Of a stretch of DNA of 64,000 bases, positions 10,508 through 57,187 are shown piece after piece. The DNA is taken from NCBI RefSeq assembly GCF_041248615.1, contig NZ_CP158426.1. One strand, given 5' to 3'. Origin of the DNA: Escherichia coli. Its GTDB lineage: Bacteria > Pseudomonadota > Gammaproteobacteria > Enterobacterales > Enterobacteriaceae. Below the pieces are notes generated by a model. It searched no databases. It worked only from the letters and a program-made list of their open reading frames with translations, and was not told the origin of the DNA. The stretch's first letter is position 1. Each line of letters begins with the position of its first letter. The translations under genes were made by a program, and so were the position numbers.

Positions 10508-12753
<2,246 letters not shown>

Positions 12754-13826: not shown

Positions 13827-15143
13827 ATGAAACCGTTACATTATACAGCTTCAGCACTGGTGCTCGGACTGACGTTAATGGGGAATGCACAGGCAGTGAC
13901 GACCATTCCGTTCTGGCACTCTATGGAAGGGGAACTGGGTAAAGAGGTGAATTCTCTGGTCCAACGTTTTAACGCCGAAAACCCGGATTACAAAATTATA
14001 CCGACTTATAAAGGCAACTACGAAGAGAGTTTAAGTGCGGGGATCGCAGCATTTCGTACCGGTAACGCTCCGGCTATTTTGCAGGTTTATGAAGTTGGCA
14101 CCGCCACCATGATGGCGTCGAAAGCCATTAAACCGGTGTATGACGTGTTTAAAGAGGCGGGGATTAACTTTGATGAGTCGCAGTTTGTGCCGACGGTTTC
14201 AGGCTACTACTCCGACAGTAAAACCGGACACTTACTCTCCCAGCCGTTCAACAGCTCGACTCCTGTTCTCTATTACAACAAAGATGCTTTCAAGAAAGCA
14301 GGATTAGACCCGGAACAGCCGCCGAAAACCTGGCAGGATCTGGCGGACTATGCCGCGAAACTGAAAGCCTCCGGTATGAAGTGCGGCTACGCCAGCGGCT
14401 GGCAGGGCTGGATCCAACTGGAAAACTTTAGCGCCTGGAACGGTCTGCCGTTTGCCAGCAAAAACAACGGCTTTGACGGCACAGATGCGGTGCTGGAGTT
14501 CAACAAGCCGGAGCAGGTGAAACACATCGCCATGCTCGAAGAGATGAACAAGAAAGGCGATTTCAGCTACGTCGGGCGTAAGGATGAATCCACCGAGAAG
14601 TTCTATAACGGTGATTGCGCAATGACGACTGCCTCTTCTGGTTCTCTTGCCAGCATTCGCGAGTACGCCAAATTCAACTACGGCGTAGGCATGATGCCTT
14701 ACGACGCTGACGCGAAAGATGCACCACAAAACGCCATTATCGGCGGAGCCAGCCTGTGGGTGATGCAGGGCAAAGATAAAGAAACGTATACCGGCGTGGC
14801 GAAGTTCCTCGACTTCCTCGCGAAGCCAGAAAATGCTGCCGAGTGGCACCAGAAAACCGGTTATCTGCCAATCACCAAAGCGGCGTATGACCTGACCCGT
14901 GAGCAGGGCTTTTACGAGAAAAACCCAGGGGCGGATATCGCGACACGTCAGATGCTGAACAAACCGTCGTTACCGTTCACCAAAGGACTACGTCTGGGCA
15001 ACATGCCGCAGATCAGAGCGATTGTGGATGAAGAGCTTGAGAGCGTGTGGACCGGTAAGAAGACGCCACAGCAGGCGCTGGATACCGCCGTTGAGCGTGG
15101 GAATCAGTTACTACGCCGCTTTGAGAAATCGACGAAGTCTTAA
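13827..15143 (+). CDS. ugpB: sn-Glycerol-3-phosphate/glycerophosphodiester-binding periplasmic protein (UgpB), orphan copy
   Basis: 438 aa with signal peptide; near-identical to K-12 UgpB as recalled; no ugpA/E/C genes follow. Confidence 0.85.
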
Positions 15144-16637: not shown

Positions 16638-17981
16638 ATGCACAACTCCAAAATCCGGCTGGCTATACTGGTTGGCTGCATGGCTCTGAGCGCCAACCTG
16701 TGGGCCAAAGCGCAGCCGGTGCAGGCAACGCTGGCCGGGCATGCAATTCTGCCGGCAAAATCCGCTGTTTCAACACCGAAGGATGCGCCGGGCGATTTGC
16801 AACAGAGCGGCAAATACACCAGCGGCAAACGCGTCACCGAGCTGGGCAGCGTGGCGGGCAAATCCGCAGAACGCCTGACAGGACTCAGCCTGCCGATCAA
16901 TGGTCAGCCGTTGCAGGGCCACTCAGGTATCAAACACATGCCCGACGGTACCTATTGGGTGCTGACTGACAATGGCTTCGGCAGCAAAGCCAACTCCCCG
17001 GACGCCATGCTGTACCTCAACCAATACAAGATAGATTTCAAAGACGGCTCGGTAGTACCGCTGAAGACGCTGTTCCTGCATGATCCGGATAAAAAGGTGC
17101 CGTTCCACATCATCAACGAGAGCACCGAACTACGCTATCTGACCGGCAGCGATTTTGATCCGGAAAGCTTCCAGTTTTCCGACGATGCCTTATGGATCGG
17201 TGATGAGTTCGGTCCTTACCTGATCAAGACCGACCTGAACGGCAAGGTGCTGGCGGTGTTCGACACAGAAGTGGACGGTAAGGTGGTTAAATCGCCGGAC
17301 AACCCGACGCTGACTCTACCTAGCGCTCCGGACGGTAAGCTGAACTTCCAGGTGGCGCGTTCCAAAGGCTTTGAAGGCATGGCCATCTCGCCGGACGGCA
17401 GTAAGCTGTATCCGCTGCTGGAAGGGGCATTGTGGGACGGTGAGCAGTTCGAGAACGTTGACGGAAAACGCTACCTGCGTGTGCTGGAGTTCGATGCCAA
17501 ACAGCAGGCCTGGACTGGTCGCAGCTGGCAGTACGTGCTGGAAGACAACCAGAACGCCATCGGCGACTTCAATATGATAGATGATACCCACGGACTGGTG
17601 ATCGAGCGTGATAACGGCGAAGGCACGGCGGATAAAGCCTGCGTCGCCGGCGCGCCGACCAACAACTGCTTCAGTCAAGTAGCCAGGTTCAAACGGGTGT
17701 ATAAAATTGCTTTCTCGGACACTAACGTCGGAAAACCTGTCGAAAAACTGGGCTATATTGACCTGATGAAGATTCAGGATCCGAACAAGCTGGCACGCAA
17801 GCCGCTGAACGACGGTGTGCTGACCTTCCCGTTCTTCACCATTGAGAACGTGGATGTGGTTGACACTAACCACATCATCGTAGGCAACGATAATAACTTC
17901 CCGTTTTCCTCCAGCCGCTGGCCTAATATGGCGGATGACAACGAGTTTATTCTACTGGATGTGAAGGATTTTCTGAAGTAG
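16638..17981 (+). CDS. Secreted phytase-like esterase family protein (PF13449-like)
   Basis: 447 aa with signal peptide; repeated ...SPDG..LY...EG.. beta-propeller-like motifs recalled for the esterase-like phytase family. Confidence 0.55.
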   Translation: MHNSKIRLAILVGCMALSANLWAKAQPVQATLAGHAILPAKSAVSTPKDAPGDLQQSGKYTSGKRVTELGSVAGKSAERLTGLSLPINGQPLQGHSGIKHMPDGTYWVLTDNGFGSKANSPDAMLYLNQYKIDFKDGSVVPLKTLFLHDPDKKVPFHIINESTELRYLTGSDFDPESFQFSDDALWIGDEFGPYLIKTDLNGKVLAVFDTEVDGKVVKSPDNPTLTLPSAPDGKLNFQVARSKGFEGMAISPDGSKLYPLLEGALWDGEQFENVDGKRYLRVLEFDAKQQAWTGRSWQYVLEDNQNAIGDFNMIDDTHGLVIERDNGEGTADKACVAGAPTNNCFSQVARFKRVYKIAFSDTNVGKPVEKLGYIDLMKIQDPNKLARKPLNDGVLTFPFFTIENVDVVDTNHIIVGNDNNFPFSSSRWPNMADDNEFILLDVKDFLK

Positions 17982-18137
17982 GGGGAAGAGCATCTTACGA
18001 TACTCCTCGCTAATTTAAAAACGAACGGTGCTGAGCACCGTTTTTAATCACCTCGCCAGAACCTACCAGAATATGATGTTGGTTTATTATCACTGATTCA
18101 TGGGGAGCACCCAGCGCTTCGGCGGTTTTTTATGTCT

Positions 18138-18962
18138 TTAAAGCAGTAGCGGTAGGGTCGCGCTGGCTGTTTTCTGGCTCACCTCGCTGTACTGGTCATC
18201 CAGCGCAATCAGCGATGTGGTGAGTAGCTCTACCAACAGCATCACTCCCACTTTGGCAGTCAGCGCGCCGGCACTCAAGGGTCCTTCCGGTTTGGCCGCG
18301 ACCAGTTGAATATCACTCAGCGAAGCTAACGGACTGCGCGGTGTATTACTCAGCGCCAGTACACGCACACCTTGCTTACGCGCTAGTTTTACGACATGCA
18401 GCAGATCGCGCGTGGATCCAGAACTGGAAATCGCCACCACGAACGTGTTTTTACTAAGTGTTGTGGCGTTCATGGCAGCACGATGCATATCGCTGAACAA
18501 TTGTGCGGGTTTCCCCAGACGCAGGAGTTTATAATGTAAATACTCCCCCAGAATGGCACTGGCTGCTACGCCATAAATCTGCACTGACTGAGCCTGATGC
18601 AGTGCAAGCGCGGCTGCTTCCAGCAAGGTTCTGTCGAGTAATTTTGCTGTGTCCTGTATTGCTTGCACGGATTCATTGACCACATTGTCAATCTCATCAC
18701 CGCCGTGCTCTACAAACTGTACTTGTCGGAGATCGAGTGCCAGCGCCATTTTGAATTCGTTATAGCCCTTACACCCAAGCGTTCGGCACAGACGTGTGAC
18801 GCTAGCCTCGCTGGTGCCGCTTTCACGCGCAAGTTCGGTAATCGTCAGGTAGACAACTTTTGCCGGATCGCTAAGTACAAACTCTCCCAGCTTCTGTTGT
18901 GTTCGGCTATATCCATCAACGCTCTGGCGCAATCTCAGCAGCAGGTTTTCATTTTCTGACAT
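18138..18962 (-). CDS. RpiR/MurR-family transcriptional regulator (HTH plus SIS domain)
   Basis: 274 aa; N-terminal HTH (ITELARESGTSEASVTRLCRTLG) and C-terminal SIS-like region; divergent from the PTS EIICB gene. Confidence 0.8.
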   Translation of the reverse strand: MSENENLLLRLRQSVDGYSRTQQKLGEFVLSDPAKVVYLTITELARESGTSEASVTRLCRTLGCKGYNEFKMALALDLRQVQFVEHGGDEIDNVVNESVQAIQDTAKLLDRTLLEAAALALHQAQSVQIYGVAASAILGEYLHYKLLRLGKPAQLFSDMHRAAMNATTLSKNTFVVAISSSGSTRDLLHVVKLARKQGVRVLALSNTPRSPLASLSDIQLVAAKPEGPLSAGALTAKVGVMLLVELLTTSLIALDDQYSEVSQKTASATLPLLL

Positions 18963-19127
18963 GTAAAATCCTTAATGCGTTTATCTGTTGATAGTGTGAC
19001 GGAAAGGAGGGGATTGATGCCAGACATTTTAAAAAAGTATGATCGACTTCTTAGATTTTGATGGTGATTTTTATTTATAAGAATAATTATAGTAAAAATT
19101 TTCATCAAAAATCGAGGAGATGATAAA

Positions 19128-20684
19128 ATGATGCAAATGTTTAGCGGCGCTTCATCGGGGGGATGGTTTGAAAAAGCGCAGCGGTTCGGAAAATCCTTCA
19201 TGCTGCCGATTGCGGTATTGCCCGCAGCAGGGCTGTTATTAGGGATTGGTGGCGCGTTGTCAAATCCAAACACGTTGACGGCTTATCCGTTTTTAGATGC
19301 CGACTGGTTGCAGGCAATATTCACAATCATGACCAGCGCAGGTTCTATTGTGTTTGCCAACCTGTCGGTACTCTTTGCAGTCGGCGTCGCCGTGGGGCTG
19401 GCGAAATCGGATAAAGGCACTGCCGGGCTTGCGTCATTGCTGGCGTTTCTGGTGATGAATGCCACCATCAACGCCTTATTAACGCTCAACGGAACGCTGG
19501 CGCACAAGAACCCCGCTTCAGTTGGCCAGGGGATGACGCTTGGTATTCAGACACTGGAAACTGGTGTGTTTGGTGGGGTGGTGATTGGTCTCGTCACCTG
19601 CACTTTACATAGCCGTTTCAATAAAGTCTCACTACCTCAGTTTCTCGGTTTTTTTAGTGGTTCTCGTTTTGTACCCATTATCAGCTCCCTTGCCGCGATA
19701 GTAGTGGGTGCGGTTATGACGGTGGTGTGGCCGCATTTCCAGAAACTCATTTTTGGACTGGGCGACCTGGTGGATGCGACGGGCTATCTGGGGACGCTGT
19801 TGTACGGCTTCATCCTGCGTATGCTCGGTCCACTGGGTTTACACCATATCTTTTATTTGCCGTTCTGGACGACGGCGCTGGGCGGCAGTGAAATCGTCAA
19901 CGGCCAGTTGGTTGAAGGTACGCAGCGGATTTTCTTTGCCCAACTTGCCGATCCGAATACGCAGCAGTTCTACGCGGGTACCGCTCGCTTTATGTCCGGG
20001 CGCTTTATCACCATGATGTTTGGCCTGCTTGGCGCATGTCTGGCAATGTACCATACTGCAAAGCCGGAGAATAGAAAGGTTGTCGCCGGACTACTTTTGT
20101 CGGCAGCCCTGACCTCTTTCCTGACGGGAATCACTGAGCCTGTTGAGTTCTCCTTCCTGTTTGTCGCGCCCGTATTATACGTAATTCACGCCTTCTTCGA
20201 TGGTCTGGCGTTTATGGTCGCCCATATTTTACATATCACTATTGGGCAAACCTTTTCGGGCGGGCTTATCGATTTCCTTCTCTTCGGCGTGTTGCAGGGG
20301 GAAGCTAAAACAAACTGGATGTATGTCCCCATAGTGGGAATACCGTGGTTCTTCCTTTACTACTTTACTTTCCGCTATTTGATTAACCGCTTTGGCTGGC
20401 TGACGCCGGGGCGTGAGAACGTAACCCAGGTTGAATCCGGCCAGCCTCAGAGTGAACGCGCAGCGGCAGTCATTGCCGGGCTGGGAGGCAAAGAGAATCT
20501 GGAAGAGGTGGACTGTTGCGCCACGCGCCTGCGCGTGACGGTTAAAGAGAGCAGTAAGGTAGATGAAGCTGCGCTGAAAGTGGCCGGAGCGCGTGGCGTG
20601 ATTATTCGCGGCAACGGCGTTCAGGTGATTTATGGCCCTCATGTCACCATCATTAAAAACGAAGTCGAAGAGATTTTATCGTAA
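19128..20684 (+). CDS. PTS glucose-family EIICB component
   Basis: 518 aa; N-terminal EIIC membrane domain and C-terminal EIIB with CATRLR phosphorylation-site motif. Confidence 0.85.
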
Positions 20685-21373
20685 TGAAAACTGTACTGGA
20701 TTCCCTGAAAGGTAAATTAATCGTCTCCTGTCAGGCTCTGGAAAATGAGCCTCTACATAGTCCGTTTATTATGTCACGTATGGCGCTGGCGGCAGCACAA
20801 GGTGGTGCTGCAGGTATCCGTGCCAACAGCGTGGCGGATATTAGTGCTATCAAAGAGATTGTCTCCCTTCCGATGATAGGGATTATCAAACGCGATTACC
20901 CTGGCAGTGAGGTGTTTATCACGGCCACTCTCCGGGAAGTGGATGAGCTGATGACCGTTGAGCCGGAAATTATTGCCCTGGATGCTACTGCGCGCCCGCG
21001 CCCTGGTGGTCAGACGCTGGAAGAACTGGTCACGCAGATCCGCGCTCGCTACCCGTCCATACTTCTGATGGCAGATATAGCAACAGTAGAAGAGGCAGTG
21101 ACAGCTGAACGTCTGGGTTTTGACTGTGTGGGCACTACGCTCTACGGCTATACCGCAGAAACTGCCAGGCATGTGCTGGCGGAAAATGACTGTGGATTCT
21201 TACGTGAGGTCCTGAAAGCGGTCAGCGTTCCGGTCGTGGCGGAAGGGAATGTCGACACCCCGGAGTGCGCCGCACGTTGCCTGACATTAGGCGCTCATAC
21301 CGTGGTGGTTGGGGGGGCAATCACTCGTCCGCAGCAGATAACGACACGCTTTATTGCAGCGATCGCCTCGTAA
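20684..21373 (+). CDS. N-acetylmannosamine-6-phosphate 2-epimerase (NanE family)
   Basis: 229 aa; NanE-like TIM-barrel motifs ([15 protein letters not shown]); start overlaps the EIICB stop (translational coupling). Confidence 0.8.
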
Positions 21374-21402
21374 AGCACCGATGAGGCATGATATTTTGCT
21401 GG

Positions 21403-21428
21403 GAATAAGCGATAATTATCGCTTATTC
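21403..21428. repeat. Perfect 26-bp palindrome GAATAAGCGATAATTATCGCTTATTC downstream of the nanE-like gene
   Basis: Exact dyad symmetry 30 bp after the NanE stop; could be a terminator stem or operator. Confidence 0.5.
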
Positions 21429-21480
21429 CATATTGAGAGTGCTATGCAGTTCCCGATTAGCTCGGCAGGGGCTAAATCAT

Positions 21481-21877: not shown

Positions 21878-22216
21878 ATGAAAAAATACTCTTCTCCCGT
21901 CCTTGCACTCATTCTTGTTAGCAACAGTATGGTATCCTCCGCTGCCACAAAAGAAATCTCAAAAACAGCTTATGTCTGTAATGGAAATAAGACAATGGAG
22001 GTGGTCTATATCAACACCACTGCTGGGAACTCATATGCAGTGATTAATCAGATGGATGAGATGATACCTATGCAGCTAATGAAAATGGCCTCCGGAGCCA
22101 ATTACGAAGCCATCAATAAAAGATACTCATATAAACTGTACACAAAAGGTAAAAAAGCCAATCTGGTGGAAGGGAATGATAATCCTGTCTTAAGCAACTG
22201 TTCATCGGCCGAATGA
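21878..22216 (+). CDS. MliC-family periplasmic protein (putative C-type lysozyme inhibitor)
   Basis: 112 aa with signal peptide; pattern Y-x-C ... SGA-x-Y ... TKG ... NC consistent with MliC (YdhA) fold motifs. Confidence 0.5.
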   Translation: MKKYSSPVLALILVSNSMVSSAATKEISKTAYVCNGNKTMEVVYINTTAGNSYAVINQMDEMIPMQLMKMASGANYEAINKRYSYKLYTKGKKANLVEGNDNPVLSNCSSAE

Positions 22217-22572
22217 CAGCCAGAGCCTGTCAGTAATTCTGTGTAAATGCCTTTTCTTTAAAGTGACCGTCAGGACGGTCACTGATTACCCATTCTGAAT
22301 TCAGTGCAGAATTAAAACATGTGTGCAAAATAATTTAATTCAGACAGCTTTTTATTTCACTATGGCTATCCCAGAACAACCAGTACAAATAATAAAAGAC
22401 ATATCACAGCAACACTCCACACTGACAGCGCAAAAATAAATGCCGCCTTTGTTATCTTCATATACAAGCAACCTGTCCTGATAATCACCAACTCATGTTT
22501 TATTCTTAACCATTCGTCACAAATACAACAAAAAATAACAGCAGCAGCACCGATATCACAATATAAGATACA

Positions 22573-23028
22573 TTATTCAACACCTGAATCCCCCGCCGCT
22601 TCTCTCCCCTTTATAAAACGCCCCTTCCGGAATCCAGACCGCTGCAGTGCACGACGAAGATGACCGTATACCGTCTTGTCATTCTGCCCCGTCTCTTCTG
22701 TAATCTCCGCAATACTTAAACCTCTGTAATACCGGTTCAGTACCGCTCTGCGCTCTTCCAGCGTCAACACACCTCCGGCCGCTCTCAGATTCAGCATCGA
22801 CTTATTCAGAATACAGCAGGCCTCTCCGGTAAAAAGAATACGAACAATATCTGTATACTCATCATCACAGAATACAAAATAATATCTGAATGACCTGCCT
22901 GACTGCACCCTTCTTCTGTCTGATATGGCATCTTCTATATATCTGATTCGACTGCTTACGGTTCCAAATATCTCTCGCAGGGCTTTTTCAAAATAAATAT
23001 CTCTCGTCGCCAGGATTATATCCAGCAT
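22573..23028 (-). CDS. Putative HTH transcriptional regulator (LuxR / sigma-70 region 4-like C-terminus)
   Basis: 151 aa; C-terminal LTLEERRAVLNRYYRGLSIAEITEETGQNDKTVYGHLRRA helix-turn-helix; directly downstream of and co-oriented with the trimeric autotransporter gene. Confidence 0.45.
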   Translation of the reverse strand: MLDIILATRDIYFEKALREIFGTVSSRIRYIEDAISDRRRVQSGRSFRYYFVFCDDEYTDIVRILFTGEACCILNKSMLNLRAAGGVLTLEERRAVLNRYYRGLSIAEITEETGQNDKTVYGHLRRALQRSGFRKGRFIKGREAAGDSGVE

Positions 23029-23089
23029 CTCTGTACCTCATTATATCCCGGGGGACTCCCCCCGGGACAGATATCTAAATCCTGACCTG

Positions 23090-24328
23090 TCAGAACTCAA
23101 AATTCACACCAGCATTCCACGATGCGGATGACCCACCTGCAGCAACTGCAACTTTTCCTGCCACATTCTCTGTGAAACGGTAGCCCACGCCCACCGCAAT
23201 GGCCTGCTCATCACGGTAACCACCAACGGCTGCTGTCGCGTTAAATTTTCCAACACTGTATGGCTGGAAAAGACCTGCCAGTGCCGCGCTCTGGGCTGCA
23301 CTCTCCCTTAACTCCTTCCGGTTCTCTTTAATCTGCTCCTGCATATTATTCATTCTCTCTGTCGCCATCTTCTGCCAGGCTTCCGTCAAATCCAGACGAT
23401 GACTGTTATTCCTTATCGCTGCTGTATTTGAGGCTATTGCTGCATCCGTCTGCGCCCTGTTCTTCACAAGCACATCGCTGAGATGTTCTGCCTGGCTTTT
23501 CGCTTCTTTACGGGCATCCCGTACACTTTTATCTGTATAAGCCCGGGAAACCTGAACTGTTTCATCCGCTTTTTCTTTTATTTCATCCTGAAGAGCAAGA
23601 GAAGATGCATCCGTATACGCCACCGCTGCCGATGTGCCTGCAATAATATCCCTGCTGAGTTCAGCATGAACTGTTGAAAGACGTTTATCTGTCTCGTCAA
23701 TTCTTTCATTCGTCTGCAACAAAAAGACCTGTGCATCATCAAATCGTTCATTCAGTTGCCCTACCGTCGCTGCATCTGTGTTATTGATACCATCAGACAC
23801 ATTTATAATCCGGCGGGTTTCCGGTGCTCCTTTGACACTCTCTCCATATCCCTCAGGCCCGGCACCAACAGATACCACGTTATTTTCTCCCGACACCTGT
23901 GAGCCATGGCCCAGAGCTACAGAACTGGTAGAATCCTGCACAGATGAAAACGCACCAATTGCCGAGCTCTGACGAGAAGAAATAAGTGACGCTTCTTTTC
24001 CTGCAACAGTCCCCCATTCAGAGTCAGCAATAAGTGCATCATGCCCCAGACTCACACTTCCCGGAGAGTTCACAACACCAGAATTATTCCCCAAAAGCAC
24101 AGTCCTGTTTGAGTCTAATAAAAAAGAATCATCACCAATCAACCATACATTTCTTACTTTATCAATCGAACGGCCAGCTACTGATTCTCCAACAAGAAAG
24201 CTATTATCTTCGCCAGGTTGAATCGGTCCGATTAAAATATCCTGAGCCTGAGCCTGAGCCGAGAGCAGCAGGGCCACACTCACTGCCAGCGCGCTTTTCT
24301 TTAAAAAAGCATCACGTCTTTTAAGCAT
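23090..24328 (-). CDS. Trimeric autotransporter adhesin (YadA-like anchor)
   Basis: Start at MLKRRDAFLKK with AGGAGA ribosome-binding site; signal peptide; Ser/Gly-rich head repeats; long coiled-coil stalk; C-terminal YadA-type membrane anchor ending ...AGVNFEF. Confidence 0.8.
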   Translation of the reverse strand: MLKRRDAFLKKSALAVSVALLLSAQAQAQDILIGPIQPGEDNSFLVGESVAGRSIDKVRNVWLIGDDSFLLDSNRTVLLGNNSGVVNSPGSVSLGHDALIADSEWGTVAGKEASLISSRQSSAIGAFSSVQDSTSSVALGHGSQVSGENNVVSVGAGPEGYGESVKGAPETRRIINVSDGINNTDAATVGQLNERFDDAQVFLLQTNERIDETDKRLSTVHAELSRDIIAGTSAAVAYTDASSLALQDEIKEKADETVQVSRAYTDKSVRDARKEAKSQAEHLSDVLVKNRAQTDAAIASNTAAIRNNSHRLDLTEAWQKMATERMNNMQEQIKENRKELRESAAQSAALAGLFQPYSVGKFNATAAVGGYRDEQAIAVGVGYRFTENVAGKVAVAAGGSSASWNAGVNFEF

Positions 24329-25079
24329 TCTGTTATTCTCCTGTATTATTACTTCACCAGCCAGAACGGTAGTGCGGAGCAAAAATACAGTGATAAGAAT
24401 CCTCTTTTATTAATTTAATAATGCCAGGAATATTATTGTGTATAATATGCGCCCTCAATTTAAGCAGCAGAAAACGACTGGCATTAAAATCATTAAATTA
24501 TAAACATATACAACTTTGTAAAGGTGGTTATAATAAACCTGATTACTTTAACGTCTGTATACCTGCACTGCTGATATCACAAAACAATAAAAATCCTGGT
24601 TAATATCTCTGATGATTGAATGAGAAATTCACGATGTCTGGTGAGAATTCTGTTCAAAACGAGGAATGCAGACGTACACGTGGCACGCACCACGTGATCC
24701 GTAGAAAAGCCTCTTGTTACGAATTTCGTAAACCGCACGTCTGTCTGGTCGTGCGGATTTTTTATCCGTCAACTTCACATGAAACCCGCCAGAGCACTGT
24801 TTCCGGATTCAGACATCAGGCATATTATTATCCACGATGTCGTGAACAAGATCACACTTTTGCAATTCCTTTATTGATCGAAAGCAGTTAATCACGGAAA
24901 TTAATTACCGGAGTGAAAGCATTTGCTATATAAACATTCCCAGAAGACATCTTCATGTTGAATATTATTCCCTTATTGACTAGCCCCTCTGACAGAATTT
25001 CAGAGGGGGTTTTTTATCAGTTTCACCATCCAACCCTGTACGCCAGAATGGTTTCACTGTCACTCAGTTCTGCTATTGC

Positions 25080-25470: not shown

Positions 25471-26424
25471 TTACAATAGCTCTCTGGCTGCCGCCACAAT
25501 ATCTTGCGCGGTTAACCCGTACTCTCTCTGTAAAAAGTCCTGAGTTCCAACCTGGCCATACCGCTCTTTAACCCCCACCCGACGCATGGGCACAGGACAA
25601 GTTTCTACAAGCACTTCAGCAACCGCTGAACCTAATCCATTATGAATACTATGGTTTTCACATGTTACGATCCGTCCTGTTTTTTCGGCATAATTTTTAA
25701 TTAACATCCGATCAACGGGTTTGAGCGTAAACATATCAATCACCGCTACACTTACCCCAGCCAGCTCAAGTTGACGTGCGGCCTCCAGGGCTTCCACCAC
25801 CATAATGCCATTAGCAATTAAGGTGACATCCGTACCTTCACGTAATACCTGCCCTTTGCCAATTGTAAAGGTTGTACCTGGTGCGTAAATACTCGCTGCT
25901 TGCTTCCGAATGGTACGAATCCAATAAAATCCTTCCAGTGCAACGAGTTGACGCAAGATATCGCTGAACATTACGGCATCTGTCATCTCCATCACCACCG
26001 AATGCGCCAGCCCGCGCACAATTCCCATATCTTCAAATGACATATGTGTTCCGCCATTGTGGCAAGCAGCAACACCCGCATCAGAAGCTATAACTTTGAC
26101 GTTAGCGCCCTGGTAATCAAGCGACATAAAGAGTTGATCAAAACAGCGACGACTGGCAAATGCGGTAAAGGTATGCACGAATGGCTTGCGCCCGGTTAAG
26201 GCCAGCCCTGCAGCTGTGCCGATAACATTGGCTTCCATAATGCCGCAATTAATGACGTGATCTGGATAATCCTGCGCCACGCTGTCCATTGCCATGGAAC
26301 TCATTAAATCAGCCTCAAGAGCAATGACAGAACTGACGTTTTTACTCTGTTGCGCGATAAAATCTGCATAAACTTTGCGCATTTCAATGCTGTCTTTTTG
26401 TCCTGCCGGTGCGAGATTAATCAT
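25471..26424 (-). CDS. Transketolase, C-terminal subunit (split transketolase)
   Basis: 317 aa with transketolase pyrimidine-binding and C-terminal domain motifs; overlaps the N-terminal subunit gene by 8 bp. Confidence 0.85.
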   Translation of the reverse strand: MINLAPAGQKDSIEMRKVYADFIAQQSKNVSSVIALEADLMSSMAMDSVAQDYPDHVINCGIMEANVIGTAAGLALTGRKPFVHTFTAFASRRCFDQLFMSLDYQGANVKVIASDAGVAACHNGGTHMSFEDMGIVRGLAHSVVMEMTDAVMFSDILRQLVALEGFYWIRTIRKQAASIYAPGTTFTIGKGQVLREGTDVTLIANGIMVVEALEAARQLELAGVSVAVIDMFTLKPVDRMLIKNYAEKTGRIVTCENHSIHNGLGSAVAEVLVETCPVPMRRVGVKERYGQVGTQDFLQREYGLTAQDIVAAARELL

Positions 26425-27247
26425 GCATAGCCTCCAGTTGGCGAATTGTTTCGTTTAGCGTCCCCTTCATCTCTTCTGTGAGGCGTAAGTGATGAGAATT
26501 ACTGAGTTGCTCGAGACACGGCACCCCCTGCCCTTTAATGCTATCGAGAATGACCACTCTCGGTCTGGCCTCAGCTGGCAGGACAGGTTTAACTACATTC
26601 AACAAGCCCTCAATATCATCGCCCTTCACTGTCACGACATCAAAACCGAAAGCCCGGAATTTTCCTTCCAAATCAAATGGATTAATAATTTCATCCAGTT
26701 GACCATCAAGCTGCTGTTTGTTCCAGTCCACAAACACAGTGAGGTTATTCAAACGATGATGCGCGATAAACTGGAAAGCTTCCCAACATTGGCCTTCATT
26801 AAGTTCGCCATCGCCGACAATACAAAAAACCCGATTCTTGCGCCCCGCCAGTTTATGCGACAGCGCCATCCCTCCGGCAATGGATATCCCCTGCCCCAGC
26901 GATCCTGTGGTGCTATCAACACCACACGTTTTTAGCCGATCCGGATGACTTGGTAAGCGGGTTCCGTTCTGATTTAAGGTGCTTAATTCTTCCAGTGGAA
27001 AGTAGCCTTTCAGCGCCAGAGTACTGTAGAGAGCAGGTCCGGCATGTCCTTTGGACAGGATAAAATAGTCACGCTCAGGCCAGTCGGGAGCAGCAGGATC
27101 AATTTTCATTACAGCGCCATAAAGCACTGCCAGCGTTTCCACAACCGACATGCTGCCACCATAATGACCGAAGCCGAGATGAGTTAATGATTTAAGCGTC
27201 TGGATACGTATATCCCGTGCAAATTGAGTCAATTCTTTAACATTCAT
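26417..27247 (-). CDS. Transketolase, N-terminal subunit (thiamine-diphosphate binding)
   Basis: 276 aa with GHAGPALY and GDGE...G thiamine-diphosphate motifs. Confidence 0.85.
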   Translation of the reverse strand: MNVKELTQFARDIRIQTLKSLTHLGFGHYGGSMSVVETLAVLYGAVMKIDPAAPDWPERDYFILSKGHAGPALYSTLALKGYFPLEELSTLNQNGTRLPSHPDRLKTCGVDSTTGSLGQGISIAGGMALSHKLAGRKNRVFCIVGDGELNEGQCWEAFQFIAHHRLNNLTVFVDWNKQQLDGQLDEIINPFDLEGKFRAFGFDVVTVKGDDIEGLLNVVKPVLPAEARPRVVILDSIKGQGVPCLEQLSNSHHLRLTEEMKGTLNETIRQLEAMHD

Positions 27248-28638
27248 GATTTGGCTCCACTCTTCTTCTGCGCTTTGGCAGCGATTTTGTTACTGGCGAA
27301 AATGTTCCAGGCAACCAGCAGCACAAATAGCGCTACTACAAGTCCGGTGATGGCAAAAGGTGAGAGATAACGTGCCAGGTTTCCGAGGACGATGCCGACA
27401 GCACCAAAATCTGCATCGGAAAAGGTCGTATTAGCAAAGCCTATCGCCCCAAGAACCGGCAATAACAGTACTGGCAGGAAGGTAATCAATAAGCCATTCG
27501 CAAAAGCACCAATCATTGCGCCACGACGTCCCCCCGTAGCGTTACCAAATACGCCAGCAGCCGCCCCGGTAAAAAAGTGAGGAACGACACCCGGAAGAAT
27601 CAACACCAGTTTCATCTGTCCCAACAAAAATAGCCCTACCAGACCGCCAAAAAAGCTAAACAAGAAACCAACTAACACTGCGTTTGGCGCATACGGATAC
27701 ACAACCGGGCAATCGAGGGCCGGACGGGCATTCGGCACCAGCTTTTCTGAAAACCCGGTAAATGCCGGAACTATTTCAGCAAGGATTAAACGCACGCCTT
27801 GCAGAATAATAAATACACCAGCAGCGAAGGTGATGGCCATTATGATGGCGTAGACAAGGTAGTTTTGACCACCACTGAACTGGCTTTCAACGAACTCACG
27901 ACCAGCACTGATCGCCATGATCAGATAAATCACCATCATCGTAAGAGAAATAGAGATGGAACTGTCGCGCAGGAAGCTCAGATTTTTGGGCAAATTCATC
28001 TCTTCGGTGGAGCGGGAACCTTTACCGCACACGCTGCCAATCCAGCCAGAAAGTACATATCCCAGAGTGCCAAAGTGACCAAAAGCAATGTCATCATTCC
28101 CCGTAATACGCTTCATATAGCGTTGTGCTAATGCCGGGAAAAATGCCATCACAAGTCCCAGAATAAGAGAACCGGTAAAGACCAGTGATATACCTTCAAA
28201 ACCAGCCACTGTCAGAATCACACCAATCATGCAGGCCATGTAAAATGTGTGGTGTCCGGTCAGGAAGATATATTTAAGGCGGGTAAAGCGGGCAACAATA
28301 ATATTCGCCACCATACCAAATGCCATAATAAGGGCCGTCGATGCGCCATATTTTTCCAGCGCAATAGAAACAATAGCCTCATTATTCGGAATGATGCCCT
28401 GAATATTAAAGGCATGTTCAAACATACTCCCAAGAGGATTTAACGAACCAACCAAAACAGTGGCACCACCGCCCAGTACAATAAAGCCGAGAATAGTTTT
28501 AATTGTACCTTTAACAACATCTGAAAAAGATTTTTTCTGGGCAACCAGACCAATTAAGGCAATCAAGCCGACCAGTATCGCGGGCACTTTAAGTATATCA
28601 ACAACAAAATTCAGCGTTTCAAGGATAAACATATCCAC
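27244..28638 (-). CDS. PTS ascorbate-family EIIC (UlaA/SgaT-like)
   Basis: 464-aa polytopic membrane protein with UlaA-like organisation; overlaps the transketolase N-subunit start. Confidence 0.85.
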   Translation of the reverse strand: MDMFILETLNFVVDILKVPAILVGLIALIGLVAQKKSFSDVVKGTIKTILGFIVLGGGATVLVGSLNPLGSMFEHAFNIQGIIPNNEAIVSIALEKYGASTALIMAFGMVANIIVARFTRLKYIFLTGHHTFYMACMIGVILTVAGFEGISLVFTGSLILGLVMAFFPALAQRYMKRITGNDDIAFGHFGTLGYVLSGWIGSVCGKGSRSTEEMNLPKNLSFLRDSSISISLTMMVIYLIMAISAGREFVESQFSGGQNYLVYAIIMAITFAAGVFIILQGVRLILAEIVPAFTGFSEKLVPNARPALDCPVVYPYAPNAVLVGFLFSFFGGLVGLFLLGQMKLVLILPGVVPHFFTGAAAGVFGNATGGRRGAMIGAFANGLLITFLPVLLLPVLGAIGFANTTFSDADFGAVGIVLGNLARYLSPFAITGLVVALFVLLVAWNIFASNKIAAKAQKKSGAKS

Positions 28639-28654
28639 CTCGCTTCAATTAAGG

Positions 28655-28927
28655 TTATTGTTTTGCTAACCAGTTACGCAGTTGCGTTTCGAGTTCATTA
28701 ATATCAATGATGTTGTTGATAACCACCAACTGACTTTCCGGTACGCTGGCACTGGCAGCAATATCTTTGGCCATCACAAATAAATCGGCAGCCCCTGGCG
28801 TTGCTGATGAGAGATCGGAATGTTCCACTTCCGCCTCTATATCCATTTTTTTCAGAACTTTTTTAATATTCATTTCGACCATAAAACTACTACCAAGCCC
28901 TGAGCCACAAATAGCCATAATTTTCAT
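28655..28927 (-). CDS. PTS ascorbate-family EIIB
   Basis: MKIMAICGSGLGSS active-site cysteine motif; start chosen at the internal Met (the track ORF has a longer N-terminus); start uncertain. Confidence 0.7.
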   Translation of the reverse strand: MKIMAICGSGLGSSFMVEMNIKKVLKKMDIEAEVEHSDLSSATPGAADLFVMAKDIAASASVPESQLVVINNIIDINELETQLRNWLAKQ

Positions 28928-29005
28928 TATATTCACCATTTTAAGTTGAAGAAGTCCCATCACGCAACGGCGCAATGTTGTGAAAAGACTGAATTTATAA
29001 TGTAA

Positions 29006-29455
29006 TCAGAACCGTGAAATTATCTTTTTTATTTCCTCCACATTGCGAGCCTGATGCAATTCATGTAAATCTTTTTCGCTGGAGAATAACTCAGCCAGTG
29101 CAGATATCATTTCGATATGACTGTGTTTGTCTGGTGCGGCAAGTAAAATGATAACATCTACAGGATCAAATTCCTCTGTATGAAAACTGACACCTTCTTC
29201 AAGTTTTAATAATGATAAACCTAATCCTTTTGCCCCTTCTTCTGGTCGGGCATGCGGCATGGCCAGCCCGGGTGCCAGGACATAATAAGGCCCCAGTTTT
29301 TCATGTTGTGTCTTTATCGCACTGAGATAATCCGTCGTAATTATCTCTGCATCCAGTAACGGTCTGGCACAGATATCTAATGCCTGCTGCCAGGTTGCGG
29401 CATTCTTTCGTAATGCGATTGTTGAATCAGAAAGCCAGATATTAAGCACTCCCAC
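29006..29455 (-). CDS. PTS EIIA (mannitol/fructose-type fold; ascorbate-family partner)
   Basis: 149 aa with EIIA-2-like histidine region (LAMPHARPE). Confidence 0.75.
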   Translation of the reverse strand: MGVLNIWLSDSTIALRKNAATWQQALDICARPLLDAEIITTDYLSAIKTQHEKLGPYYVLAPGLAMPHARPEEGAKGLGLSLLKLEEGVSFHTEEFDPVDVIILLAAPDKHSHIEMISALAELFSSEKDLHELHQARNVEEIKKIISRF

Positions 29456-29706
29456 CCCCTAATTTCTTATTTATATGACCAGAATGTATTCAAGTAACGA
29501 CGGTATATCTGCGATCAATATCACAAAGATAGCGCTATCAGGAGGTATTGTTCGAATTTGTGATAGCGCTATCAAAATAGATTTCACTGATTAAATCCAG
29601 ACTTATGGCAGATATTAAGAGGTATACTCTGCTACTGGCAGTGCAGGAAGCCGTTGATGATAAGTAATAAAAGATCTCCATATGTAGTCGCTGAGCAGGA
29701 TTTTGT

Positions 29707-30726
29707 ATGGCAATAACCCGAAAACGTCGTAGTACAGGTAAAGTCACTATTGCTGATGTCGCGCAACTCGCGGGAGTTGGCACAATGACTGTATCCAGAG
29801 CGTTACGCACTCCCGAACAAGTTTCAGATAAATTGAGGGAGAAGATTGAAGCCGCAGTTAATGAATTAGGGTATATGCCCAACCTCACTGCAAGCGCACT
29901 GGCATCGGCATCTTCACACACGATCGCAATGGTCGTGCCAAACCTGGCTGAAGCGGGATGCACGGAAATGTTTGCCGGGCTGCAACATGTGCTACAACCA
30001 GCGGGGTATCAAATAATCCTGGCTGAGTCACGCCATCGTCTGGAACAAGAAGAAAAACTGCTGGAAACCCTGCTGGCTTCTAATATCGCTGCAGCAATTT
30101 TGCTTAGTGTTGAGCATAATAGTACCGTGCGTCACTTGCTCAAAAATGCCTCGATTCCTGTTATAGAAATCGGTGCCATTCGTACTGATCCGATAGATAT
30201 CAACATTGGTATTGATAATGTTGCAGCAATGTTCGAGCTGACGGATATGCTGGTACAACGTGGTTATCAGAATATCGGTTTGCTATGCGCTAACCAGGAA
30301 CAGTGGATCTTTCAGCAGCATTTACAGGGATGGTATAAAGCTATGTTACGCCATCATATGTCTCCCAACCGTGTTATTAACGCTGCTCTGCCACCTGTTT
30401 TTTCCACCGGAGCATCACAACTACCGGAATTTTTGCTCGCATGGCCGGAACTGGATGCCCTGGTATGTGTGTCAGATGAGTTAGCCTGCGGTGTTCTCTA
30501 TGAATGTCAACGAAGACGGATCAAAGTTCCAGACGAGCTCGCCGTAGTAGGATTTGGTGACAGTGACGTCAGCAAAGTTTGCCAACCATCATTAACAACA
30601 ATGGCCGTTCCTCACAGGAAAATTGGTCTGGAAGCAGGAAATGTTTTGCTGGAACGAATTAAAGAAGGTAACTGGAGCAATCAGATATTCATTGAGCCCT
30701 GTTTATGTTTACGTGAAAGCTGCTGA
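29707..30726 (+). CDS. LacI-family transcriptional regulator
   Basis: 339 aa; N-terminal HTH (TIADVAQLAGVGTMTVSRAL) plus periplasmic-binding-protein-like domain; divergent from the PTS/transketolase operon. Confidence 0.85.
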   Translation: MAITRKRRSTGKVTIADVAQLAGVGTMTVSRALRTPEQVSDKLREKIEAAVNELGYMPNLTASALASASSHTIAMVVPNLAEAGCTEMFAGLQHVLQPAGYQIILAESRHRLEQEEKLLETLLASNIAAAILLSVEHNSTVRHLLKNASIPVIEIGAIRTDPIDINIGIDNVAAMFELTDMLVQRGYQNIGLLCANQEQWIFQQHLQGWYKAMLRHHMSPNRVINAALPPVFSTGASQLPEFLLAWPELDALVCVSDELACGVLYECQRRRIKVPDELAVVGFGDSDVSKVCQPSLTTMAVPHRKIGLEAGNVLLERIKEGNWSNQIFIEPCLCLRESC

Positions 30727-56002: not shown

Positions 56003-57187
56003 TTAACTTTCCCGGCTGGAGAGTGAATCAATGTAATCAGCGTACCATTGCATCATTTCACGGCGGCCATCGAGATACAGGGCATGATTATAGGTACCCC
56101 TGATGGAATTTTTATCCACATGAGCTAACTGCATTTCAATCCAGGCGGAGTTAAAGCCTTGTTCATGCAGAATTGTACTCATGGTGTGTCTGAAACCATG
56201 CCCTGTGAGTCTTCCCTTATATCCAAGTAATTCAATTACTTGGTTAATGCTTTCCTTACTAATTGGTTTGCGGGGATCATTTCTACCGATAAAGACTAGG
56301 GGATGATGTTTTGAGATTGGTTCAAGCTGCTTAAATAGCATAATAACCTGCTCAGAGAGCGGCACAATATGAGGTCGCTTCATCTTCATTACTTCTGCCG
56401 GGATCTCCCACAATTTTGTCTCAAAATCGATATCTTCCCAGCGTGCAAAACGCAGTTCTTGTGTTCGTACGCCGGTTAACATAATGATCTGAGTAGCTGT
56501 CTTAGTGATTATACTTCCGGTATAACCCGCCAGATCGTTGAGGAAGTGGGGAAGTTCATTAGCAGTAAGAAAGGGAAAATGTACTTTTTTCGGTGTAGCT
56601 AAAGCACTGGCAAGATCGGGGGCTGGGTTATAGTCTGCCCGGCCAGTAACAATTGCATAGCGGAACACCTCACCACAGCGCTGGCGTACCTTGCGCATTT
56701 TCTCCAGAGCTCCACGTTTTTCCATTTTACGCAGTGCTTCCAGTAACTCCATTGGTTTGATTTCGGCAATAGGGCGCTTGCCAATGTAGGGAAAAATGTC
56801 TTTTTCAAAGGTATCAATGATTTCATCACGATAGCGTAATGACCACCGATCGGCTTTTGACTGGTGCCATTCGCGAGCAATAGCCTCGAACGTATTTTTC
56901 AGACTTATTTGCTGCGCGATTTTTTCTTCCTTTTTTGCCTCCCCTGGATCGCCTCCAGCAGCGAGGAGTTTCCTGGCTTCACTGCGTTTCTCGCGAGCAT
57001 CGGCTAGCGTTACATCGGGGTATACGCCAATAGAAAGCATCTTTTCTTTACCAGCAAAGCGGTACTTCATGCGCCAGTATTTAGAACCATTAGTGTTAAT
57101 CAGTAGATACATACCGCCGCCATCAGCAAGCTTATAGGGTTTGTCTTTGGGTTTTGCGGTTTTCACTTTGATATCGGTTAATGCCAT
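56003..57187 (-). CDS. P4-type tyrosine integrase (selC-associated)
   Basis: 394 aa; N-terminal MALTDIKVK...; C-terminal catalytic region with R...HGFRHT...Y; lies 300 bp from the selC 3' end. Confidence 0.9.
   Translation of the reverse strand: MALTDIKVKTAKPKDKPYKLADGGGMYLLINTNGSKYWRMKYRFAGKEKMLSIGVYPDVTLADAREKRSEARKLLAAGGDPGEAKKEEKIAQQISLKNTFEAIAREWHQSKADRWSLRYRDEIIDTFEKDIFPYIGKRPIAEIKPMELLEALRKMEKRGALEKMRKVRQRCGEVFRYAIVTGRADYNPAPDLASALATPKKVHFPFLTANELPHFLNDLAGYTGSIITKTATQIIMLTGVRTQELRFARWEDIDFETKLWEIPAEVMKMKRPHIVPLSEQVIMLFKQLEPISKHHPLVFIGRNDPRKPISKESINQVIELLGYKGRLTGHGFRHTMSTILHEQGFNSAWIEMQLAHVDKNSIRGTYNHALYLDGRREMMQWYADYIDSLSSRES

Follow-up and report, generated by a model that had tools for sequence, protein, structure and literature searches.

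What sugar does a glucose-type permease bring into the cell when its gene overlaps that of a second NanE-type epimerase, and how did the pair come to lie in a genomic island of Escherichia coli? The question is raised by three genes, rpiR, EIICB and nanE, in a 64,000-nt stretch of E. coli DNA (RefSeq assembly GCF_041248615.1, contig NZ_CP158426.1), referred to here as the window. We read them, with a probability of roughly 0.6, as a self-contained cassette, acquired horizontally, for the catabolism of N-acetylmannosamine (ManNAc), an amino sugar that arises first when sialic acid is broken down and that also occurs in bacterial surface polymers. EIICB, a permease of the phosphotransferase system (PTS), would take up ManNAc and phosphorylate it at C6 through the general PTS proteins and, lacking an EIIA itself, through free EIIA-Glc (Crr). 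NanE, encoded on the EIICB mRNA with a start codon that overlaps the EIICB stop, would epimerise the resulting ManNAc-6-phosphate (ManNAc-6-P) to N-acetylglucosamine-6-phosphate (GlcNAc-6-P), which the housekeeping enzymes NagA and NagB would convert to fructose-6-phosphate. The NanR-like RpiR protein would bind a pair of conserved boxes that overlie the EIICB promoter, and ManNAc-6-P would release it. We infer the transported sugar, the use of Crr, repression and the inducer from sequence comparison and gene context; the lack of a kinase in the minimal three-gene unit fits a PTS that delivers an already phosphorylated sugar. The initial annotation had likewise proposed a PTS route for ManNAc or a related amino sugar, and those elements of its reading that could be checked all hold.

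Gene content and predicted functions

All three open reading frames (ORFs) proposed in the initial annotation are present, and RefSeq gives the same genes with identical coordinates: the regulator gene on the minus strand (18138–18962; 274 aa) and, divergent from it on the plus strand, EIICB (19128–20684; 518 aa) and nanE (20684–21373; 229 aa). The junction between the latter two reads TCGTAATGAAA. A four-nucleotide ATGA start/stop overlap had been assigned to position 20684, but the TAA stop of EIICB (20682–20684) and the ATG of nanE (20684–20686) have one base in common, so that the overlap is TAATG, with 1 nt shared. No internal stops are found and all three genes are under purifying selection (dN/dS 0.04–0.22 against three diverged copies). 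An Rfam scan of 15–25 kb detected no structured RNA at E ≤ 0.1.

NanE matches N-acetylmannosamine-6-phosphate 2-epimerases over its full length, both in the Pfam NanE model (E 1.4e-69, model positions 1–191 of 192) and in NF002231 (316.1 bits, above the curated cut-off of 189). Its nearest relatives are enzymes of Staphylococcus aureus (structures 1y0e/6vva, E about 1e-78), Clostridium and Fusobacterium (E about 1e-78 to 1e-74 for the three), while enzymes of Salmonella or Vibrio are matched only at E 1e-38 to 1e-31 and identity to NanE of E. coli K-12 is 41%. In the S. aureus enzyme, mutagenesis and crystallography place Gln11, Arg40, Lys63, Asp124, Glu180 and Arg208 in the active site, and xPxIGIxK[K/R] and VG[S/G]AxTR are signature motifs (PMC8482478). 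Equivalents of all six residues are kept in the cassette protein (Q17, R46, K69, D131, E187 and R215), as is Y156, and both motifs are found (LPMIGIIKR at 62, VGGAITR at 209). The earlier naming of a NanE-like epimerase is borne out by these matches, and the loss of catalytic residues that it had raised as a possible objection is not seen, the active site being complete. The protein is a Gram-positive-like paralog of E. coli NanE, with predicted epimerase activity.

EIICB consists of a PTS_EIIC domain (residues 21–359) followed by PTS_EIIB (447–479), with GITEPVE at 334 and the phospho-Cys motif CATRLR at 464. These domains and motifs (GITEPxE, CxTRLR) agree with its initial assignment to the glucose family. 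No EIIA domain was found in the protein by Pfam, and none is annotated in the window. The cut-off of no substrate-defined equivalog (glucose, maltose/glucose or GlcNAc) is reached: the score lies slightly below the limit for glucose-specific IIBC, TIGR02002 (587.3 against 591.8 bits), and below those for MalX (482 against 632–665), NagE-type permeases (445 against 553) and E. coli PtsG (421 against 647). Identity is 43% to both PtsG and MalX of K-12, 35% to NagE and 73–75% to orthologs from Firmicutes. Specificity is thus not readable from the profiles, and ManNAc is proposed as the substrate from the evidence that follows. A 702-aa protein labelled as coming from a Cichorium endivia assembly (P0093) contains PTS_EIIC, NanE and PTS_EIIB domains; it is probably bacterial contamination, with EIICB and nanE merged over the 1-nt overlap.

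The divergent regulator has HTH_6 (6–78) and SIS (121–248) domains, in keeping with its initial description as RpiR/MurR-type. Its best match among solved structures is 4ivn (E 1.4e-68, 44% identity over 271 residues; next match 1e-32), which is Vibrio vulnificus NanR crystallised with ManNAc-6-P. The bit score is 234 for 4ivn, against at most 115 for any other solved RpiR protein (RccR) and 65 for MurR, and the SIS domain alone gives 156 bits for NanR against 66. The protein falls under the cut-offs of the AlsR, MurR, HexR and RpiR equivalogs. Equivalents of the phosphate-binding Ser/Thr cluster of Streptococcus pneumoniae NanR (SpNanR; S135, S179, S181 and T184) and of its R148, which reads the N-acetyl group, are present. 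The Arg148 equivalent was considered as a ManNAc-specific marker and rejected, because RccR, a sensor of 2-keto-3-deoxy-6-phosphogluconate, has an arginine there too. Taken with these matches, the regulator is predicted to be a ManNAc-6-P-responsive repressor.

A predicted operator lies in the rpiR–EIICB spacer, conservation of which was scored over 56 enterobacterial loci. It is an inverted repeat at 19056–19110 (arms 19056–19073 and 19093–19110; consensus TGATGATAATTTTCA and TAAAAATTTTCATCA), with arms of 18 nt that are 83% complementary around a spacer of 19 nt, and its two boxes are the best-conserved blocks of the region. The promoter scan found a promoter-like element in the same place (-35 TTGATG at 19058, 18 nt, -10 AATAAT to 19087), an overlap that fits expectation for a repressor operator, and TGAAA/TTTCA half-sites in the boxes resemble the pneumococcal NanR site, TCTGAAACTACTTTCAAA. 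The 19056–19110 site is the best box match in the whole window; no other good match was found there, and hence no evidence for a wider local regulon. Next to the rpiR start, a 15-nt non-coding box (18992–19006; TAGTGTGaCGGAAAG, also given as TAGTGTGGCGGAAAG) is at least 80% conserved over the same intergenic regions, on a par with the operator boxes, and is a candidate rpiR promoter or leader, or a site for a second regulator. No CRP site is claimed, since a half-conserved TGA-N6-TC at about 19040–19050 is a weak match with atypical spacing to the predicted promoter.

Linkage across bacteria and capture from the eno–queE region

Orthologs of EIICB (69–96% identity) are found in many Enterobacterales and in Negativicutes and Bacilli. 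Among 80 ortholog loci from these clades, surveyed for context with one locus per species, 78 contain nanE and 77 have it adjacent on the same strand; the loci without a nanE match are one that ends just after EIICB (L079) and that of Yersinia pekkanenii (L062). Such near-invariable adjacency is expected if the product of the PTS is the substrate of NanE. A divergent rpiR accompanies the pair in 55 of the 58 Enterobacterales loci (two of the three exceptions are incomplete). When all flanking ORFs were clustered, only EIICB, NanE and an RpiR were common to the three clades, and no phospho-glycosidase or deacylase was conserved beside the cassette.

Loci from Firmicutes link the pair to amino-sugar or sialic acid genes, and in some of them EIICB lies within nagBA or nanA–nanK clusters. 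The Selenomonas locus reads nagB-nagA-EIICB-nanE-yhcH-ROK-rpiR and that of Mitsuokella nanE-nanA-sodium-solute symporter-yhcH-ROK-EIICB-rpiR, while in Virgibacillus a nanE-nanA-ROK cluster adjoins the cassette. A crr-like EIIA, the partner absent from EIICB, lies next to the cassette in four Bacilli loci. The RpiR proteins of Bacilli (L004, L068–L093) are 27–35% identical to the enterobacterial ones and are encoded downstream, not divergently, with EIICB at about 70–75% identity; the permease–epimerase pair seems to have moved between phyla, gaining a different regulator lineage. Every Cronobacter species has nanE (229 aa), even those without nanAKT that are unable to use sialic acid, and this nanE is the one located in the EIICB cassette. 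The PTS is the likely source of ManNAc-6-P there, and in such Cronobacter the cassette is predicted to work independently of sialic acid catabolism.

The E. coli cassette is a captured, horizontally acquired piece of the enterobacterial eno–queE region, now residing in tRNA-associated islands. In Citrobacter, Cronobacter, Enterobacter, Lelliottia and others the cassette occupies the interval from eno to queE on the core chromosome, and both genes flank it in at least 37 of the 58 Enterobacterales loci. By blastn, 18115–21459 of the window matches 4986–8333 of the Citrobacter locus (L007) at 89% identity over 3348 nt. This captured fragment comprises rpiR, the divergent EIICB–nanE pair, the following spacer and the first 16 nt of queE, and has a G+C content of 52–54%, against 47.5% for the window. 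Its right edge is a queE stub on the plus strand (21444–21459; ATGCAGTTCCCGATTA, M-Q-F-P-I), identified by alignment to Citrobacter queE (MQYPINEMF...) and followed by unrelated debris resembling insertion sequences (IS).

Of 5426 complete E. coli genomes, 468–481 (8.6–8.9%) carry the cassette, in at least four sequence classes. Copies of at least 99% identity make up 147 records, those of about 96%, with O104:H4 and O55:H7 among them, 310, and those of about 94%, which have a 264-bp queE stub near tRNA-Phe, 13; a class of about 87% (12 records), to which AH02 belongs, retains a complete native queE next to the cassette. The 96% and 100% classes have the same break after queE codon 6. Shared stubs and breaks of this kind mark the island copies as secondary captures from the eno–queE site. 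In AH02 (L102, 5015–8993) the full queE is followed by a CRISPR array, queD and cysJI, and an IS4 remnant lies on the rpiR side; an IS4 remnant on that side is also found in the 94% island class (L012, 3715–3976), hinting at a mobilisation route.

Downstream palindrome and island setting

A perfect 28-bp palindrome (21402–21429; arms GGAATAAGCGATAA and TTATCGCTTATTCC) follows nanE. It had been reported as a perfect palindrome after the operon, and perfection and position 3′ of nanE both hold; its length, however, was given as 26 bp (21403–21428), and it belongs to queE rather than to the operon. It lies in the nanE–queE spacer, and a related sequence lies at an equal distance upstream of queE in K-12, a strain without the cassette. 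The palindrome overlaps a promoter-like ATGATA-17-GATAAT, and in a chance test 0 of 100 shuffles matched it even with 3 mismatches allowed. An intrinsic operon terminator was considered and rejected: the element folds as an A+T-rich 12-bp stem, the next sequence is AUAUUGAGAG, with no U tract, and the terminator scan did not call it. It is a relic of the queE 5′ regulatory region. Citrobacter keeps only a 12-bp core; the quasi-palindrome is imperfect there (L007) and in the E. coli 94% class (L012), where it reads GGGGATCTGCGATAATTATCGTTTATCCCC, and perfect in the classes with truncated queE (30 bp in the O104:H4 class, at about 8280–8310 of L011; 28 bp here). The change from imperfect to perfect came through paired changes on both arms, which points either to hairpin selection following the loss of queE or to a template-switch ‘correction’ of the quasi-palindrome.

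The window, which is 100% identical to E. coli NRZ14408 (NZ_LT599825.1, 64001–128000), comprises an island of ~51 kb with an integrase, between setC and the tRNA-Sec gene selC. One edge (1–2331) has eip-type translocon/chaperone genes of a type III secretion system and the setC/yicL/nlpA backbone, and the other (56003–57581) a tyrosine integrase and selC, then yicJ/yicI/yicH. The cassette had been described as a second amino-sugar route ‘alongside’ the chromosomal nan system, wording that slightly misframes a cassette that is itself chromosomal, in the selC island.

Two identical 1258-bp copies of ISEc31 in inverted orientation (10508–11765 and 40982–42239) bracket a 29-kb segment that includes the cassette. 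Relative to strain Ecol_AZ159, in which the flanks are contiguous, a rearrangement has its breakpoints exactly at the inner edges of the two copies (11766 and 42239), indicating an IS-mediated inversion. Collinearity with Ecol_AZ159, where K1 capsule genes are adjacent, is limited to about 11.8–31.1 kb of the window, and no capsule link is claimed. Two islands were considered as possible matches to the cassette and rejected. AGI-3 of avian pathogenic E. coli (APEC) BEN2908 is a selC island in which three clustered genes influence carbohydrate uptake, but its carbohydrate locus is the fos (fructo-oligosaccharide) operon, and the tkt1 island occupies another locus (metE–ysgA) and has another glucose-type EIIBC and another RpiR.

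Upstream of the cassette (13827–15143 and 16638–17981), an orphan ugpB without ugpAEC and a gene for a signal-peptide ‘esterase-like activity of phytase’ protein, with a dead IS110 between them, could be remnants of an organophosphate-scavenging module. Directly downstream (21878–24382) are genes for a c-type lysozyme inhibitor, a sigma-factor-like HTH protein and a YadA-type trimeric autotransporter adhesin. A further sugar module lies ~4 kb away (25471–30726), with a transketolase split over two genes, a PTS of the ascorbate family (IIC/IIB/IIA) and a LacI-type regulator in divergent orientation. In islands of the O104:H4 class (L011, L013), LacI and the PTS-Asc IIA/IIB/IIC set are again neighbours of the cassette, which indicates a tendency of the two modules to move together.

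Competing explanations and related systems

EIICB could instead be a glucose, glucosamine or broad hexose permease, linked to NanE only through an amino-sugar/sialic-acid regulon. NanE would then draw its substrate from NanK acting on sialic-acid-derived ManNAc, and the cassette would provide the nanE that split nanATK clusters lack. Such separation of nanE from nanATK is indeed seen in Cronobacter sakazakii, Citrobacter freundii and Enterobacter, so that the cassette gene serves sialic acid catabolism there, and the Mitsuokella EIICB shares a cluster with nanA, ROK and a sialic-type symporter. The same alternative gains from two facts that weigh against ManNAc uptake, namely that TIGR02002, the nearest profile of EIICB, is glucose-specific and that PGAP labels one E. 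coli ortholog ptsG. A third is that SP1684, the glucose-family PTS adjacent to nanE in pneumococcus, shows a glucosamine phenotype and is assigned that sugar; the growth-rate effect is small, and SP1684 resembles EIICB in family and gene context. We nevertheless consider a hexose permease unlikely. Neither glucosamine-6-phosphate nor glucose-6-phosphate is a substrate of NanE, yet the EIICB–nanE pairing is tight, with stop and start often overlapping, and persists in genomes or loci without nanA or nanK nearby. The minimal unit, moreover, has no kinase, and PtsG is already present in all hosts. With a probability that we would set lower still, the permease might import some other 2-acetamido-mannose-type compound, with NanE acting on the 6-phosphate formed. 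N-glycolylmannosamine is one candidate, and a ManNAc-containing piece derived from teichoic-acid linkage units, capsules or enterobacterial common antigen is another. In favour of such a compound, many carriers (Peribacillus, Neobacillus, Pantoea, Rahnella, Erwinia) live in soil or on plants, where host sialic acid is scarce, and the glucose-family PTS includes disaccharide permeases. Against such a substrate, only three families recur at the cassette, with no conserved phospho-glycosidase or deacylase among them, and the regulator most resembles a ManNAc-6-P sensor.

The E. coli copy might also be passive island cargo, unexpressed or no longer useful, redundant with ManXYZ and NanE and decaying among IS debris. 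It is flanked by IS remnants and the truncated queE and is carried by only about 9% of genomes. Its left operator box is degenerate, with 3 mismatches to the consensus, which counts against the proposed regulation as well. This reading is nonetheless very improbable, as the neighbouring genes are pseudogenised while those of the cassette are intact in every copy inspected, dN/dS between the E. coli classes is 0.08–0.22, and 468 genomes keep at least 80% of the fragment. Uptake of ManNAc by EIICB remains the preferred explanation, although it also has to accommodate an undiagnostic arginine in the regulator, shared with RccR, and two further findings. Deletion of the PTS of the Listeria nanE operon, which belongs to a different PTS set, left growth on ManNAc unimpaired, and E. 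coli already imports ManNAc through ManXYZ (PMC10667646), so that the cassette would be redundant.

The closest functional analogue is the STM1127–STM1131 island of Salmonella enterica, which encodes a MurR/RpiR repressor and a NanE paralog, is induced by ManNAc and needed for normal growth on it independently of GntR-type NanR/nanATEK, and affects gut competition (PMC11745405). Like the cassette, it is accessory and combines a MurR/RpiR-type regulator with a second NanE paralog. Where the cassette has a PTS EIICB, however, the Salmonella island uses a sodium-solute symporter, YhcH, an outer-membrane channel and the small RNA ManS, and the cassette has neither yhcH nor an outer-membrane protein gene nor an Rfam-detectable RNA. 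The Salmonella NanE paralog (3igs) is also distant from that of the cassette (E 2e-37; the S. aureus enzyme gives 1e-78). The two share only the regulator and NanE and are not the same system. V. vulnificus NanR, by far the closest solved relative of the regulator, is an RpiR-family repressor that ManNAc-6-P releases from the nan genes. It has the same HTH_6 and SIS architecture and aligns end to end, but it controls a full sialic-acid cluster, whereas the regulator gene of the cassette has only those of a PTS permease and NanE beside it.

In nan operon I of S. pneumoniae, nanE–nanP (SP1685–SP1684) resembles the cassette in that a glucose-family EIIBC without EIIA adjoins nanE, an RpiR-type NanR binds ManNAc-6-P and the operator half-sites are TGAAA...TTTCA. 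Unlike the cassette, the pneumococcal pair sits in a large sialic-acid regulon with NanR as an activator, and its PTS is the one assigned to glucosamine. The lmo2795–nanE operon of Listeria monocytogenes likewise joins RpiR, a PTS and a NanE that is required for growth on ManNAc, but is larger (ROK, HAD, an oxidoreductase and a separate EIIA), with an activating regulator and a PTS dispensable for ManNAc growth (PMC10667646). The E. coli core route through ManXYZ and the NanE of nanATEK-yhcH is predicted to share the chemistry of the cassette, from ManNAc through ManNAc-6-P and GlcNAc-6-P to NagA/NagB. It differs in having a mannose-family instead of a glucose-family permease, a NanE of 41% identity and a GntR-type instead of an RpiR-type regulator, and the cassette, for its part, is accessory. 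The cassette is an uncharacterised representative of the RpiR, PTS and NanE logic known from pneumococcus and Listeria. No description of this E. coli or enterobacterial cassette as such was found in the literature, where only a nanE ‘split’ from nanATK is noted; papers on selC/pheV islands and on enteroaggregative E. coli 042 do not mention it, and a comparative genomics paper on mucin sugars does not predict a ManNAc PTS.

These findings are consistent with current concepts, and the cassette is a fairly ordinary nutrient module, which accounts for the separate (‘split’) position of nanE relative to nanATK in Cronobacter, Citrobacter and Enterobacter. If ManNAc is indeed its sugar, a substrate would be assigned to a widespread glucose-family PTS orthogroup now annotated generically. 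Somewhat more tentatively, this orthogroup may represent the first glucose-family permease dedicated to ManNAc, and the cassette would then be a mobile ‘ManNAc scavenging’ trait, conferring a colonisation advantage on extraintestinal pathogenic E. coli (ExPEC), APEC and O104:H4-type strains, as with STM1127–STM1131 in Salmonella. ManNAc uptake by the cassette would thereby add a metabolic fitness candidate to the tRNA-associated islands of ExPEC/APEC and of enteroaggregative or Shiga-toxigenic lineages.

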